A program made the translations under genes and the position numbers. From an uncultured delta proteobacterium (GTDB taxonomy: Bacteria > Myxococcota_A > Polyangia > Polyangiales > Polyangiaceae), in assembly GCA_963782055.1 (NCBI GenBank), contig CAWAIF010000003.1:4736001-4800000 (forward strand): 64,000 nucleotides of DNA, given 5' to 3'. The stretch's first letter is position 1. Each line of letters opens with the position of its first letter. Shown here in pieces: positions 37,000-42,468 of this stretch. Under the pieces are notes generated by a model, which saw nothing but the letters and a program-made list of their open reading frames with translations, was not told where the DNA came from and made no database searches.

Positions 37000-38193
37000 C
37001 TACAGGCCCGCGACGTGGTTCTTGAAGGTCGTGCCGTAGGGCGTCGTCGCGGTCCCGGAGTAGTTCTGGATGAGGTCGAGGCAGTCGCCCCAGGTGTCCC
37101 ACGTCCAGGCGAGGTAGCTCTGCTTCTTGCCGTCGAGCCAGTTCATCAGCGTCGTGATGAAGCCGCCCCCGCAGTCCTGCTCGCCGATCTCGGTCGCGAC
37201 GACGGGGTACTTCTTGGCCACCGCGCCGGCGGTGGCGTCGTAGCAGCTGGTGTCGCTGCAGAGGTTGAAGTCGTAGACGTGCCACGCCGCGGCGAGGTTG
37301 TTCGCCGGGTCGGCGGGCACGTGCGTCAGCCACTGCGAGAGCGCGTTGGAGTACTCCACGCCGCCGAGCAGGACGAGGTTGTTCGCGCCCGCCGCGCGGA
37401 CGGCGGAGACGAGGGTGCTCATCCCCGCCACGGTGTAGTTGATGCCGCTGCAGGAGCCGCCCTTCTCCCAGCACGTCCAGGCGGCGTTGGTGTCCTGGTT
37501 GTTGTCCGGGTACGGCTCGTTGTGCATCTCCAGCACCACATCGGGCCGGCTGGCGAAGGCGGCGGCCACCTGCGACCAGAAGGTGACCGAGTGATCCATG
37601 TCGGGCATCGGCCGCTGCCCGGTCGCGGGCGTCGAGCCGGGCGCCGTCCAGTGCAGCTCGAGGATGGGGTACATGCCGTGCGCCAGGATGCGATCGGCGA
37701 AGTCGGAGAGGGCCTTCTGGTAGTTGGCGCCCGCGTACTGCGACGGCACGCCGTTGATGCCGAGCCAGCAGTCCTCGTTCATGGGGACGCGCACCGCGTT
37801 GACGTTCTTCCAGCTCGCGATGGCGGCGAGGGAGGCGTCGTCGGATGGGCCGTCGAAGATGCCGAAGCCCTGGATGCACGCGTACTCGGTGCCGGAGCGG
37901 TTCACGCCGTGGAGCTGCACGGTGTTGCCCTTGCCGTCGACGAGCAGGTTGCCGACGGCGTGGAGGTAGTGCACCCCGGCGTCGCCCGACGGCGAGGCGT
38001 CGGCGTCGCCCGACGGCGAGGCGTCGCCCGTCGCGTCGGCGCCGACCGCGGCGTCCAGCGCAGGCGAGGCGCCCGCGTCGCCCGTGGCGGAGGGGTCGGC
38101 GGCGTCGGGCTCGCTCGAGCTGGAGGTCGTCGAAGGCCCGCACGCGAAGGCGGCGGACGCCATGAGGGCGATGGCCCATCGGAGTTGCTGCAT
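37000..38193 (-). CDS. Glycoside hydrolase family 5 (cellulase-like) lipoprotein
   Basis: Lipobox AFAC; LHGVNRSGTEYAC, VRVPMNE, NEP acid/base motif, ATEIG nucleophile, YLAWTW. Confidence 0.9.
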   Translation of the reverse strand: MQQLRWAIALMASAAFACGPSTTSSSSEPDAADPSATGDAGASPALDAAVGADATGDASPSGDADASPSGDAGVHYLHAVGNLLVDGKGNTVQLHGVNRSGTEYACIQGFGIFDGPSDDASLAAIASWKNVNAVRVPMNEDCWLGINGVPSQYAGANYQKALSDFADRILAHGMYPILELHWTAPGSTPATGQRPMPDMDHSVTFWSQVAAAFASRPDVVLEMHNEPYPDNNQDTNAAWTCWEKGGSCSGINYTVAGMSTLVSAVRAAGANNLVLLGGVEYSNALSQWLTHVPADPANNLAAAWHVYDFNLCSDTSCYDATAGAVAKKYPVVATEIGEQDCGGGFITTLMNWLDGKKQSYLAWTWDTWGDCLDLIQNYSGTATTPYGTTFKNHVAGL

Positions 38194-38337
38194 GCCGATG
38201 CTCTAGCAACCGGACTCGCGACTCGGCTCGTGGCTCATGCGCGATTGCTCGCATCATGTGCGGCACGAGCGTGCGGCGCCGCTCGGGCCGAGCTCTCCCA
38301 AAATTGTCCGTGGCTCAGGCGTGCGCATCGGCCTAGA

Positions 38338-38856
38338 ATGGACGCCATGTCCGGCTCGGCTTCCGACAAATCCGGCGACGCGACCGCCAGCCGCGCGCTG
38401 CTCACCGCCGCGCTCGGCGGCCTCCTGTGCGTCGGGATGCCGGCCTGCAGCGCCACCGACCCGGGCTCCGACACCGTCGCCCCCGGCGGCCGACCGGACG
38501 CCGCGCTGGCGTCCCCTGCCGTGCAACCGGACGCGGGCGTCGGCCTGGACGCCTCCGTCGACCTGGACGCCTCCGCCGCCGATGCCGCCGCCGGGGACGC
38601 GGCGCCCGCGTGCGAGGGTGGCCCGGGCGATGCCGCCCCGATCATCACCTCCTCGACCATCGTCCCCGACCTGACGCTGGAGGACTTCACCGCCGAGTGC
38701 GACAAGCGCGGCGGCACCGTGGAGATCCACCCGCACTGCGGCGGGGAGAACACCTGTCGCGGGATGTCCTACGACACCGGGACGCAGACCCTCACCGAGC
38801 ACACCTGCCGCGGGATGAACGTCTGCGCGGGCTTCAGCTGCGTCATCTGCGACTGA
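38338..38856 (+). CDS. Cys-rich exported (lipo)protein, candidate MNIO/bufferin-type RiPP precursor
   Basis: Leader RALLTAALGGLLCVGMPAC; DAG-rich linker; C-terminus HPHCGGENTCRG...EHTCRGMNVCAGFSCVICD; abuts DUF2063/DUF692. C-terminal part of ORF 37015..38856; alternative ATG at 38347. Confidence 0.72.
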   Translation: MDAMSGSASDKSGDATASRALLTAALGGLLCVGMPACSATDPGSDTVAPGGRPDAALASPAVQPDAGVGLDASVDLDASAADAAAGDAAPACEGGPGDAAPIITSSTIVPDLTLEDFTAECDKRGGTVEIHPHCGGENTCRGMSYDTGTQTLTEHTCRGMNVCAGFSCVICD

Positions 38857-38859
38857 GCC

Positions 38860-39732
38860 TCAGCCGGCCCCGGCCCAGAAGCCCAGCGTCACGCTGCGGG
38901 CGAGCCACGCCTGCGTCTTGACCGGCAGCTCGCCGCGCTCCTCGGCGGGGCACGCCGCCTCCAGCCGGGCGAGGGCGTCGCGCACCGTGTGGCGACCGAG
39001 CAGGTCGAGGAGCTCCGCCTCGCGCGCCTCCAGCGGGAGGTGGCCCAGCCCCTCCGGCCGGCGGACAATCGCCCACCACCGCGCCTCGGGCAGCCGCGCG
39101 GGGAGCGCGACCGGAGCCTCCGTCGCGTCGTCGCGCGCCTGCTTGCGAAGCTCGAGCAGCGGCCAGCTCTCCTTCACCAGCGCCGCTGCCGGAGAGGGAA
39201 CCAGCCGCGCGTCGAGCAGCCGCGGGGCGTCGCTCGCCGAGGGACGGTACGGCAGGATCTCCGGCGCGCCGAGCACGCGCATGAATGCGGCGTCGATGCG
39301 CGCTGCCTCCACGAGCGCCTCCCGAGCGACCAGGCGGTCGCCGGCGGCGACGTGCTCGCCCGGCGTCTCCTCGTCGAGGAAGGTCTCGAAGCCGTCCGCC
39401 GCGCGGCCGACGTCCCACCCGTGCGGGGGGTGAGCGAGCAGGAAGCGCGAAGCGTGATCGTTGAAGGTCCAGTGACCGAGCAGCCGCGTGGTGAGCGGGA
39501 AGGCGGTCTGCAGCACGCCGAAGAGGCGAAACCAGTACTGCCGGTTGTAGACGGCGAGCCGCTCCGCGCCGCTCGTCTTCGGGCCGCCCCGCGCCTGCTC
39601 CACGAGGGCGGCGTCGTAGGCGGCGGGCGTCGCCCTGAGCGTGCCGCTCGCGCGGTCGAGCGGCGTGCGGATGGTCGCGCCGAAGCGCGCCTGCAGGTCG
39701 GCGAGCCAGGCCGGGGCGTCCCGCGAGCTCAC
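38860..39732 (-). CDS. DUF2063 (HvfC/BufC-like) MNIO partner protein
   Basis: LADLQARF, ERLAVYNRQYWFRL...FPLTTRLLG...FLLAHPP. GTGA overlap with the DUF692 stop. Confidence 0.85.
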   Translation of the reverse strand: MSSRDAPAWLADLQARFGATIRTPLDRASGTLRATPAAYDAALVEQARGGPKTSGAERLAVYNRQYWFRLFGVLQTAFPLTTRLLGHWTFNDHASRFLLAHPPHGWDVGRAADGFETFLDEETPGEHVAAGDRLVAREALVEAARIDAAFMRVLGAPEILPYRPSASDAPRLLDARLVPSPAAALVKESWPLLELRKQARDDATEAPVALPARLPEARWWAIVRRPEGLGHLPLEAREAELLDLLGRHTVRDALARLEAACPAEERGELPVKTQAWLARSVTLGFWAGAG

Positions 39733-40565
39733 GCGCGCGCCTCCCGCGCCCGCTCCAGCTCCGCCAGCACCTCCGGCATGGGCGGGATGCGGGCGTCCCA
39801 CTCGAGCAGCGTCGGGAAGGGCCCGCCCATCCGCCACGCGCGCGCGTAGAGCGACCACACCGCGTCGGCCACCGGGTGGTCGTGCGTGTCGACGATGGTG
39901 CCGTCCGGCTCGCGCGCGAACCCCGCCAGGTGGACCTCGAGGACGCGGGAGAAGTCGATCGCCGCGAGGTACGCGTCCGGGTCGAAGCCGTGGTTCTGGC
40001 TGGAGACGTAGACGTTGTTGACGTCGAACAGGAACCAGCAGCCCGACTCGCGCACCACGCGCGTGTAGAAGTCCCACTCGGTGAGCGTGGACCCGGCGAA
40101 GGTCACGTAGCTGGAGAGGTTCTCGATCCCGAAGGGGCGCCCCAGCCGCCGCTGCACGGCGTACGCGCGCTCCGCCGCCCACTCGACGAGCTCGGGTCGG
40201 TAGGGCGTGGGCAGCAGGTCGTGGTGGGAGACGCCGTGCGCGCCGGTCCAGCAGAGGTGATCGGTGACGAAGGGCGCGTCCACCTCGTCGGCGAGCCGGC
40301 AGAGGGCGTCGAGGTAGGCCTCGTCCAGCGGCGCGTGGCCGAGCAGGTTGAGGCCCACGCCGTGGAGCACCACGGGGTAGCGCGCGCGCACGCGGGCGAG
40401 CTTGTGCCGCGGGGGGAGCGCGGCGTCGAGGAAGTTCTCGCTGATGATCTCGAAGTACCCGACCTCCGGCTCGTGCTCGAAGAGGTACGGGTAGTGCGAC
40501 GGCCGCAGCCCCAGCCCGAGGGCCTCGCCGGCGAGGCCGCGGGCCGCCCGGACACGCTCGCTCAC
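39729..40565 (-). CDS. DUF692 multinuclear non-heme iron oxidative enzyme (MNIO, MbnB/TglH-like)
   Basis: GLGLR, FEIISENF, LHGVGLNL, DHLCW, HDLLP, IENLSSY, DVNNVYV, HLAG, DTH, LLEWD. Start 40565 or 40583. Confidence 0.93.
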   Translation of the reverse strand: MSERVRAARGLAGEALGLGLRPSHYPYLFEHEPEVGYFEIISENFLDAALPPRHKLARVRARYPVVLHGVGLNLLGHAPLDEAYLDALCRLADEVDAPFVTDHLCWTGAHGVSHHDLLPTPYRPELVEWAAERAYAVQRRLGRPFGIENLSSYVTFAGSTLTEWDFYTRVVRESGCWFLFDVNNVYVSSQNHGFDPDAYLAAIDFSRVLEVHLAGFAREPDGTIVDTHDHPVADAVWSLYARAWRMGGPFPTLLEWDARIPPMPEVLAELERAREARA

Positions 40566-40600
40566 GTCGCGCGAGGTGGACACGACGAGGAGGGTAGCAC

Positions 40601-41674
40601 TCAGTAGACGAAGGGCACGATCCGGTGGGGCACGCGCTTCCGGTACTCGTCCCACAGCGCGCCGTACTTCGCCGCGCACCGCCTGTCGTCGTCGCGCTCG
40701 CGGGGCACCAGCAGCGCGAGGTAGTACGCCGGGTACAGCCAAGGCCACGGGTCGCTCGGCCGCGCGAGGGCGAGCGTCAGGCCGAGCGCCATCAGGATCT
40801 CGCCCAGGTAGTTGACGTGGCGGGAGACGCCCCAGAACCCGCCGACGAGCAGCGTGTGCTCGCCGTCGGCGATCGTCCGCGGCGCCAGCAGGCCGAGGAG
40901 CTTCGCCGGCGGGCGCGTCTTGAAGAGGAACTTCTGGAGGTTCGCCCCGCGGGAGAGGGCCCAGCCGCCGAAGAAGACGAGCCCGGCGGCCGCGAGCAGC
41001 CACGCCGGGGCGTGGGGGTCGGGCGCGCGCGCCGCGGACCAGAGCCCCACGCAGTAGAAGAAGGGGTAGAAGGTGAAGCAGCCCCAGCCCAGCTTGAAGC
41101 CCACGCGCTCGGCGAAGAAATCGTAGGTGTACAGGTGCACCTCCTCGAAGAAGAGGTACTCGCTCACGAAGAAGGTGAAGAGCGCGGAGTACACCACGAC
41201 CGAGATCGCCGTGACGCCGCCGTTGACCTTCGCCTCGTGAGCGGCGAAGGAGAGGACGTTGAGCTCCAGCATCACCGCGCCGATGAGGTACAGGTACATC
41301 TTGGCGTCCACCAGCCCGCCGAGCAGCTGCGGGTTGGCGCGCCGGCCGAGGAAGAGCTCCGCCAGGAAGGGCTTGCCGGTGGGCGGCGCGCCGAGCACCA
41401 CGGCGAAGGTGAACGCCAGCCCCAGGGCGCACGCTCCAGCCAGCGCCTCCCACCGGTGATCCCACAGGAAATCGCGGGGCAGGACGCCGAAGTGGTCCAG
41501 GCCGTAGTAGGCGAGCAGGGTGACGGCGAGCACGCGCAGGCCGTTGAGGCGGTAGGTGAGCTTCTCCCCGTTGTCGCCCGTGACGTAGCCGCGCACGGTG
41601 CGCGCGGGCAGCAGCACGTGGAGCACGAGCACCCACGCGTAGACGGCGAGCGGCGCGACGAGCCCGGCGATCAA
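40601..41674 (-). CDS. ERG4/ERG24 family sterol reductase
   Basis: LTYRLNG, FLGRRANP, GFWGVSRHVNYLGE, RERDDDRRCAAKYGALWDEYRKRVPHRIVPFVY. TTGA overlap with the SDR stop. Confidence 0.88.
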   Translation of the reverse strand: MIAGLVAPLAVYAWVLVLHVLLPARTVRGYVTGDNGEKLTYRLNGLRVLAVTLLAYYGLDHFGVLPRDFLWDHRWEALAGACALGLAFTFAVVLGAPPTGKPFLAELFLGRRANPQLLGGLVDAKMYLYLIGAVMLELNVLSFAAHEAKVNGGVTAISVVVYSALFTFFVSEYLFFEEVHLYTYDFFAERVGFKLGWGCFTFYPFFYCVGLWSAARAPDPHAPAWLLAAAGLVFFGGWALSRGANLQKFLFKTRPPAKLLGLLAPRTIADGEHTLLVGGFWGVSRHVNYLGEILMALGLTLALARPSDPWPWLYPAYYLALLVPRERDDDRRCAAKYGALWDEYRKRVPHRIVPFVY

Positions 41675-42468
41675 GGCTCGACCGACTTCTTCATGATGGC
41701 GATGGCCCGCGCGCGCGTCACGACGCGCCGCAGGAAGAAGCTCGCCAGCTTGTTGACCGTCCCCGGCACGACGACCGGACCGCGTCCGAGCGCGTGCAGC
41801 GTCTCCTCCACCACCGCGAGCGGCGCCATCGTCCCGGGGGCCTCCTTCCCGCCGCCGAGCATGCGCTGGTAGTTGGGCGTGCGGATGGCGCCCGCGCACG
41901 AGGCGATCACGTCCACCCCGCCCGGCCGGAGCTCCGCCCAGAGGCCCTCCGCGAGGGTGGTGAGGAAGGCCTTGCTCGCCGCGTAGGCGGCGAGCCGCGG
42001 CGAGCCGGTGAAGCCGGCGAGAGACGACATGATCACCAGCGCGCCGCGGCCGCGCGCGAGCATCGGTGGGACGACGGCGTGCGTGAAGCGCAGCGGCCCG
42101 TTCACGTTGACGTCCACGACGCGCAGGGCGTCGGCGAGCGGCCGCTCCAGCAGCGGCGCGACGAAGGAGTACGCCGCGTTGTAGACCGCCACCCCCACCT
42201 CGCGGTCCGCGAGCGCGGCGCCCAGCGCGCCGGCGAAGCCCGGGTCGGCGAGGTCCAGCGCCAGCGGGACGACCTCCACGCCGTGCCGCTCCCCGAGCTC
42301 GCGCGCCAGGTCCTCGAGCACGTCCGCCCGGCGGGCGACGAGCAGCAGGTCGAGCCCCCGCGCGGCGAGCGCCTCGGCGAAGGCGGCGCCGAGGCCCTCC
42401 GACGCCCCGGCGACGACCGCCCAGCGGCCGTACCGCTCGCGGAAGGGGAGCGCGAGGCGCCGCACCAC
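41671..42468 (-). CDS. Short-chain dehydrogenase/reductase (17beta-HSD/ketoacyl reductase-like)
   Basis: YGRWAVVAGASEGLG, MSSLAG, YAASK. Confidence 0.9.
   Translation of the reverse strand: MVRRLALPFRERYGRWAVVAGASEGLGAAFAEALAARGLDLLLVARRADVLEDLARELGERHGVEVVPLALDLADPGFAGALGAALADREVGVAVYNAAYSFVAPLLERPLADALRVVDVNVNGPLRFTHAVVPPMLARGRGALVIMSSLAGFTGSPRLAAYAASKAFLTTLAEGLWAELRPGGVDVIASCAGAIRTPNYQRMLGGGKEAPGTMAPLAVVEETLHALGRGPVVVPGTVNKLASFFLRRVVTRARAIAIMKKSVEP

Follow-up and report, generated by a model that had tools for sequence, protein, structure and literature searches.

Does a gene for a Cys-rich, lipoprotein-like protein that converges on a pair of MNIO (DUF692) and DUF2063 genes encode the substrate of this pair and, if so, what would the product be? 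The question is raised by a locus in a 64,000-nucleotide window (positions 4,736,001 to 4,800,000 of contig CAWAIF010000003.1, assembly GCA_963782055.1) from an uncultured delta proteobacterium of the Polyangiaceae, for which an initial annotation had proposed a new peptide that is ribosomally synthesized and then modified post-translationally (RiPP) or a modified surface protein. All three genes are genuine and go together, and the convergent gene, hereinafter the precursor gene, likely encodes the substrate of the pair. By analogy with the bufferins, the product is most likely a membrane-tethered, thiooxazole-bearing, copper-binding mini-protein.

The gene arrangement is as initially described: the MNIO and DUF2063 genes overlap by 4 bp, and 3 bp separate the DUF2063 stop from that of the precursor gene, at 38856. 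The precursor gene is nested in an open reading frame (ORF) of 613 codons (37015-38856), and the G+C content of third codon positions is 0.94 in the precursor gene compared with 0.60 in the rest of this ORF, in the same frame; the long ORF was rejected as a real gene on this ground. Among 136 related loci (56 from genomes and 80 from metagenomes, some of them redundant), the precursor gene is tail to tail with DUF2063 in 111, with a median stop-to-stop distance of -4 bp, is linked to the pair otherwise in 4, and lacks the pair in 15, the other 6 being too short; for the 56 genome loci alone, the respective numbers are 46, 2, 6 and 2. All but one of the titled hosts are Myxococcota or ‘delta proteobacterium'. 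Across 251 genomes from the order, 40 contain an MNIO matching that of the window at E<=1e-100, 46 contain the core domain of the precursor, and 39 contain both; in the sole enzyme-only genome, the contig ends inside DUF2063, and in four of the seven core-only genomes, a more distant MNIO (48-65%) adjoins the precursor gene.

A quick tree of 97 MNIOs places the 68 family-type enzymes on a single branch (support of 98 in the Shimodaira-Hasegawa-like approximate likelihood ratio test, SH-aLRT), apart from 29 others that include the three other MNIOs of the same genome. This branch is long (0.5 changes per column), is separate from the MNIOs beside canonical BufA2, and has a support of 100 in a thinned 58-row tree that omits four of the 68 enzymes labeled as having no adjacent precursor, two long branches and, of the heme-less rows (see below) and outside rows still left, about half. 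A dedicated enzyme branch goes with the six-Cys precursor family. The other precursors of the genome are located at MNIO loci of their own: a Cys-containing lipoprotein-type gene lies immediately upstream of two of the three other MNIOs, and for the third, on contig C2, the precursor is seen only as an antisense trace. Altogether, the 111 convergent loci, the co-occurrence in 39 of 40 genomes and the single enzyme branch support the original assignment of the convergent gene as the likely substrate.

The Cys residues of the precursor are located at positions 31, 37, 92, 121, 134, 140, 157, 163, 168 and 171, seven of them within the last 52 residues, where the two CxGxNxCxG units and the CVICD end reported previously are found. 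In six frames of the 7.6 Mb genome, CxGxNxCxG occurs in five places, two in this precursor, two in a canonical Buf2-type precursor and one at an unassigned site. There are no EGKCG repeats in the precursor, and a Pfam scan detected no family at E<=0.1 and no DUF2282 signature of the four-Cys Buf1; a protein search retrieved 76 proteins at E<=0.001, the query included (75 relatives). The hydrophobic leader and the possible lipobox of the initial annotation turn out to be a conserved lipoprotein-type leader: Cys37 follows a hydrophobic stretch in all 50 aligned relatives, and residue -1 is Ala, Gly or Ser in 49 of these. By pattern, a lipobox-like motif is present in 71 of 75 proteins without a fused heme domain (heme-less) and in 107 of the 120 listed fusion proteins described below, and by a loose pattern, the leader is conserved in 59 and 98 of these, respectively. 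The genome has two signal peptidase II genes. The linker is acidic, as claimed, with 11 Asp or Glu and 1 Lys or Arg in 63 residues, and its length among the relatives is very variable (about 7 to about 150 residues); it is followed by a core of ∼70 residues.

In the core of the 75 heme-less proteins, C121 and C134 are present in all, C157, C163 and C168 in 73 (two are truncated), C140 in 72 and His155 in 71. In the three remaining proteins, C140 alone is lost, to Gly, which fits a Cys that is not engaged in a disulfide. Precursors with this replacement come from loci L032, L047, L054 and L106; no family-type MNIO was found in the genomes of L047 and L054 (best match 45% and 39%, respectively). 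The tail residue C171 and the linker Cys, scored in 67 proteins, are both present in 45 and both absent in six, with the tail Cys alone in three and the linker Cys alone in 13. An AlphaFold2 model of the unmodified chain, with a confident core (predicted local distance difference test, pLDDT, of 71-97 by block) and a disordered linker, depicts the precursor as a folded core on a flexible linker; in this model, C121 is on a helix, C134/C140 and C157/C163, that is, the two CxGxNxC units, are in loops, and C168 is on the last strand. A Foldseek search with the model gave no match at E<=0.001, a VIA-align search gave none either (best Z 3.9), the ESM Atlas gave no usable match to the core, and a sequence search turned up no solved BufA2-like chain. 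No longer forms (456-2000 amino acids) were seen among 8000 candidates, which is weak evidence.

The core can nevertheless be related to a known scaffold. A profile of the core matches 15 canonical BufA2 sequences with a probability of 93.8 (E 1.8e-7, 31 columns), with C134, C140, C157 and C163 aligned to Cys I, II, IV and V and Cys III absent, and the leading helix of the core, with the motif E-C-x-x-x-G-G-x-V, weakly resembles the Cys VI helix (1 of 100 column shuffles scored as high, in a comparison prompted by inspection). Because of these correspondences, the core reads as a reordered Buf2, homologous to it, and likely arose by circular permutation. Of 59 cores, 57 match the BufA2 model NF050166 weakly (best E 4.4e-6); the window precursor scores 14.3 bits as a whole and 17.8 bits for the core alone, against a cut-off of 60 that is strict, given that even the short Buf2-type precursor of this genome reaches just 47. 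For Caulobacter Buf2, a likely pairing of Cys I with Cys VI and shifts of -4 Da on the central Cys, -18 Da in total, have been described (10.1101/2024.03.18.585515). The best candidates for thiooxazoles in the window precursor are, most likely, C140, C157 and C163 because their contexts match those of Buf2 Cys II, IV and V, which are modified; modification of C134 and C168 is uncertain.

The enzyme, too, comes closest to the bufferin type, although just below the model cut-off. The MNIO scores 308.1 bits with NF050167 (BufB; cut-off 310), the best of five models, compared with 220.2 bits as HvfB (cut-off 360) and 54.2 bits as MbnB (cut-off 325), and because of this difference, 5-thiooxazole is the likelier modification of the two between which the initial annotation did not choose, the other being oxazolone-thioamide. 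Residues H68, D102, H103, E148, D181, N184, H212, D226, H228 and E255, which we take to be iron ligands, are invariant in 40 aligned relatives.

Comparison with characterized systems places the locus beside, and not within, the bufferins. With Bufferin 2 of Caulobacter vibrioides (BufA2-BufB2-BufC2; Buf_6/12Cys; NF050166 and NF050167; PMC11626156), it shares a DUF2063 partner beside an MNIO that is nearest to BufB, a precursor that has an export signal, six conserved Cys and two CxGxNxC units, and a cluster without DoxX, a gene that is also missing from Caulobacter buf2 (10.1101/2024.03.18.585515). According to the published survey (PMC12452194), Buf2 precursors have 6 or 12 Cys, and their clusters keep a strict bufABC order and carry no sigma/anti-sigma genes. 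In contrast, the window precursor is on the opposite strand, tail to tail with the pair, has a separate enzyme branch, a long acidic linker and a large cytochrome c-fused sister group, and its helix Cys comes first and not last, a beta-hairpin replaces Cys III, and a new Cys is on the last strand. The DAG-RiPPs (DybA, NedA and the predicted lipoprotein bufferins; PMC13056109, PMC12452194) also have a lipoprotein signal before an MNIO-targeted Cys motif, but the core of the window precursor differs, its 169-172 amino acids exceed the 50-160 range mined in PMC13056109, and its lipidation is predicted. Oxazolin (HvfABC) and methanobactin (MbnABC) likewise use an MNIO and a partner to turn precursor Cys into copper ligands, whereas here the EGKCG repeat is missing and the enzyme is far below the HvfB and MbnB cut-offs. 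The window precursor would work like a bufferin but is not a member of Buf2 by model, by Cys order or by gene order. No description of the six-Cys family was found in the literature searched, and five accessions of the family from Cystobacter and Sandaracinaceae had no matches in two supplementary spreadsheets of PMC12452194, one of them truncated.

Of the features singled out at the outset as unusual, the opposite-strand layout is real and conserved, and the acidic tether is real. The lipid anchor and the missing DoxX and extracytoplasmic function sigma factor (ECF) genes were rejected as novelties because all are published for bufferins: ∼16% of the Buf2 precursors are predicted lipoproteins and Buf2 clusters are described as free of sigma/anti-sigma genes (PMC12452194), Caulobacter buf2 is without DoxX, and lipidation of MNIO products has been shown for DybA and NedA (PMC13056109). 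No DoxX or sigma gene is adjacent to the window locus; the genome has four DoxX matches, the nearest ∼190 kb from the locus and one 1.8 kb from the canonical Buf2-type locus. The rearranged Cys order and the cytochrome c fusions were absent from the initial annotation.

These fusions emerged from weaker genome matches, in which the same core is followed, at the C-terminus, by a domain that bears CxxCH and a distal Met. A fusion profile search retrieved 171 proteins; of the best 120, all have the six-Cys core, which is followed by CxxCH in 118, and a matching distal Met motif is present in 104. CxxCH and Met are invariant in 14 aligned fusions and PF00034 is above the cut-off in six of seven, and the domain is, by these signatures, a monoheme class I cytochrome c; the top matches in a fold search were cytochromes c6, at a weak E of 0.1, and in the ESM Atlas, the fusion matched nothing but generic cytochromes, at 0.84-0.85. 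Of the 29 fusion genes inspected with their surroundings, 26 have an MNIO within the stretch, directly downstream on the same strand (the canonical order) in 22 and convergent in none, and for the three without one, the genomes hold a family MNIO elsewhere. One fusion cluster comes from a cultured organism, Cystobacter fuscus (WP_002626552.1). Copper-related MbnP is over the cut-off in fusion loci L143, L144 and L146 and DUF1775 in L142; YtkA, DUF3570 and DUF2271 are also found among the neighbors. A few Buf1|Cytochrom_C fusions are known (WP_017136223.1, WP_160059411.1; PMC12452194), which likewise join a bufferin-type domain to a c-type cytochrome but, as described there, are few and contain the four-Cys Buf1, whereas here the core has six Cys and the fusion is a major and probably ancestral form.

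In a tree of core domains, 72 heme-less and 116 fused proteins separate cleanly (FastTree 0.99). The fusion-linked MNIOs, for their part, are rejected as a monophyletic group (P=0.005 in the approximately unbiased (AU) test, run on a quick tree with inner supports of 82-94, chosen after the first tree, and possibly shaped by host kinship), and with other MNIOs as the root, the heme-less MNIOs are nested within them. This nesting suggests, as the simplest reading, that the heme-less form of the window descends from a cytochrome c fusion that lost its heme domain. No split-off cytochrome half was found in the window genome, where the fused-cytochrome profile yields at most 18 bits, compared with at least 83 for 120 fusions, and no fusion match was found in the plasmids searched. 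The whole family comprises 205 clusters at 50% identity.

Several forms of these proteins were observed in addition. P0267 has a heme-less-type core joined to a cytochrome. Ten tandem forms among 150 listed clusters (P0228, P0283, P0286, P0295, P0305, P0312, P0315, P0316, P0331 and P0334) are lipoproteins with two to four six-Cys cores and no heme. In L152 (4305-5351), L153, L154, L182-L185, P0341 and P0350, Cu-binding_MopE-type repeats with an EF-hand-like insert precede the core and the cytochrome c (the Pfam scan for Cu-binding_MopE and EF hand covered L152 only). A fusion in L147 (3449-4600; P0344) has a further C-terminal Cys- and His-rich domain, with a DUF1775-like gene adjoining, on an 18 kb contig without an MNIO. 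Near the fusions or their MNIOs in L143, L144, L145, L149, L151, L179, L193 and L195, there is a recurring cassette of DUF3570, DUF2271 (with a choice-of-anchor V-like domain), MbnP and a small, unannotated C-x4-C-H protein.

How the convergent genes could be expressed is indicated by their upstream regions. Of 48 such regions, six were dropped at the start (five tandem later copies and one duplicate); 38 of the other 42 have a TAnnnT box whose end is 4-22 nt from the ATG, compared with 0-3 of 42 in each of four control windows further upstream, and none has a Shine-Dalgarno (SD)-like word. In the window, this box (TAGAAT, 38334-38339) extends into the first ATG, so that translation likely starts at the second one, at 38347, to give 169 amino acids; the gene reported initially stands, and its 172-residue start probably does not. 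The upstream regions of the precursor genes in L002-L053 have -10-like boxes near the start codon and no SD words, which suggests leaderless transcripts or very short leaders in these hosts. L002, L005, L015, L029, L039, L041 and L088 carry two or three precursor copies each, with an own -10-like box per copy in L029 and L041. A strict sigma-70 scan found no promoter, and no upstream word is common to more than seven of the 48 regions. In one soil RNA run, 0.06 of the words are present, with two short contigs on the DUF2063 and MNIO genes and none on the precursor gene, which is uninformative as to expression.

We consider the following scheme, modeled on the Caulobacter bufferins and the lipidated MNIO products, to be the most probable, at about 0.6: the pair would modify the precursor in the cytoplasm, after which it would be exported by Sec and anchored through Cys37, with the core binding copper at the end of the acidic tether. 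The precursor and the enzyme pair would each be transcribed from an own short promoter, so that no shared operon would be needed. The pair would oxidize three or four core Cys to 5-thiooxazoles, most likely C140, C157 and C163 and perhaps C134; the helix Cys121 would form a disulfide, with C168 a likelier partner than C134, and C92-C171 is a possible second one. After lipidation at Cys37, the rings, possibly with the conserved His155, would hold copper as an envelope buffer or store. The signal peptide was rejected as a required leader since it is dispensable for Buf1 on overexpression (10.1101/2024.03.18.585515; PMC11626156), tentatively so in view of its conservation here.

Several observations weigh against this scheme. 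The lipobox is non-canonical (M-P-A-C, with Pro at -2 in 11 of 50 relatives and positions -2 and -3 often non-canonical). The modification pattern may differ from that of Buf2 because the precursor is far below the BufA2 cut-off and lacks Cys III, and C134 matches the unmodified Cys I. Fifteen of the 136 loci are without the pair, and in two of five genomes checked, the best MNIO is just 39-45% identical. Among ∼100 stretches, the heme-less form has no recurrent copper gene family next to it, the recurring neighbors beyond the three genes being shadows of them, kinases or two-component genes, or part of fusion loci. Stress induction is unsupported here because, beyond the -10 box, there is no shared upstream word. 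Finally, the heme fusions suggest a redox role over plain buffering.

The last point can be extended to an alternative in which the core, once modified, serves as a redox metal site and not as a buffer, exchanging electrons with the attached heme c in the fusions, while the heme-less window form uses a separate cytochrome or acts as a metal donor. It is favored by the CxxCH behind the core in 118 of the best 120 fusions, with CxxCH and Met invariant in the 14 aligned ones and PF00034 in six of seven, by the MNIO near 26 of 29 fusion genes, by fusion-linked MNIOs that surround the heme-less ones and do not form a clade (AU P=0.005), and by a core-plus-cytochrome model with a predicted template modeling score (pTM) of 0.75. 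However, only the best of five such models is confident (pLDDT 80; 62-71 for the others), the window protein has no heme motif and its genome no match above 18 bits to the fused cytochrome, and the heme-less and tandem-repeat forms are common, so that the heme is dispensable; we regard this alternative as unlikely. Its full version, equally doubtful, is that the family is an MNIO-built redox metalloprotein, with a thiooxazole copper site packed on heme c in a membrane-tethered lipoprotein, of which the window gene would be a derived, truncated form.

The copper-buffer scheme would also fail if the precursor were the substrate but the chemistry or the metal differed from those of bufferins, with another heterocycle or cross-link, or a metal other than copper. 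The long branch of the enzymes (0.5 changes per column) and a Cys order unlike that of Buf2 would be compatible with such a departure, and MerC-bufferin fusions hint at other metals for some bufferins (PMC12452194); nevertheless, with the enzyme within 2 bits of the BufB cut-off, three Cys in Buf2 contexts and MbnP-type copper proteins adjoining three fusions, it appears rather improbable. Least credible, to the point of being very unlikely, is an unmodified, disulfide-bonded lipoprotein beside an enzyme pair that acts on something else. The six core Cys could make three disulfides, orphan copies exist at 15 of the 136 loci, and the precursor gene is not co-transcribed with the pair; against this stand the lone loss of C140, with no family-type MNIO found in the L047 and L054 genomes, the lack of any other candidate preceding the MNIO (a sterol-reductase gene ends 35 bp upstream), the presence of the precursor in 39 of 40 genomes with this enzyme type and the canonical position of 22 of 29 fusion genes directly upstream of an MNIO.

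The features of the locus and the further MNIO loci of the genome are collected in the table. The window GH5 glycosidase has a lipoprotein-type start and a D/A/G linker resembling that of the precursor; the ERG4/ERG24 and SDR neighbors are not recurrent in related loci.

Table. Features of the window locus (window coordinates) and other MNIO loci of the same genome (contigs C2 and C3)
Feature	Position	Strand	Remarks
Precursor gene	38338..38856	+	172 aa with ATG 38338; 169 aa with the likelier ATG 38347
DUF2063 partner protein (BufC/HvfC-like)	38860..39732	-	PF09836 55.9 bits (cut-off 27.2); NF050145 25.3 bits (under cut-off 142)
MNIO (DUF692), nearest to BufB	39729..40565	-	PF05114 314.8 bits; NF050167 BufB 308.1 bits; possible earlier start at in-frame GTG 40583
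Likely -10 box TAGAAT of leaderless precursor transcript	38334..38339	+	7 nt before ATG 38347; function inferred
Possible extended -10 box TG-N-TACCCT of MNIO-DUF2063 pair	40591..40596	-	7 nt before GTG 40583; single site
Lipoprotein-type signal with conserved S-x-x-L-L-x-A-A-L-x-G-L-L stretch	38347..38448	+	ends at Cys37, codon 38446-38448
Acidic low-complexity linker containing Cys92	38449..38637	+	low pLDDT in model
Folded six-Cys core and optional C171	38638..38853	+	block pLDDT 71-97
GH5 glycosidase gene	37000-38193	-	divergent from precursor
ERG4/ERG24 sterol-reductase-family gene and SDR, upstream of MNIO	40601-42468	-	
MNIO locus, short helix-less lipoprotein Buf2 type	C3:1686930-1688133		
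MNIO locus, lipoprotein with SCG motifs	C3:4696009-4697487		
Third further MNIO locus	C2:about 140800-141966		

The locus adds a precursor family that is overlooked by current models, built on a rearranged bufferin scaffold and served by an enzyme branch of its own. It also exposes a blind spot of the published mining, the first search of which, as described in PMC12452194, took just the genes preceding the MNIO, retaining signal-bearing ones under 200 amino acids. The heme fusions, including WP_002626552.1, make it possible to address directly whether metal sites built from thiooxazoles take part in redox reactions, and how some Cys are selected by an MNIO that spares CxxCH in the same chain. 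If the redox reading were true, a RiPP-type modification would make an electron-transfer or catalytic cofactor and not a chelator.

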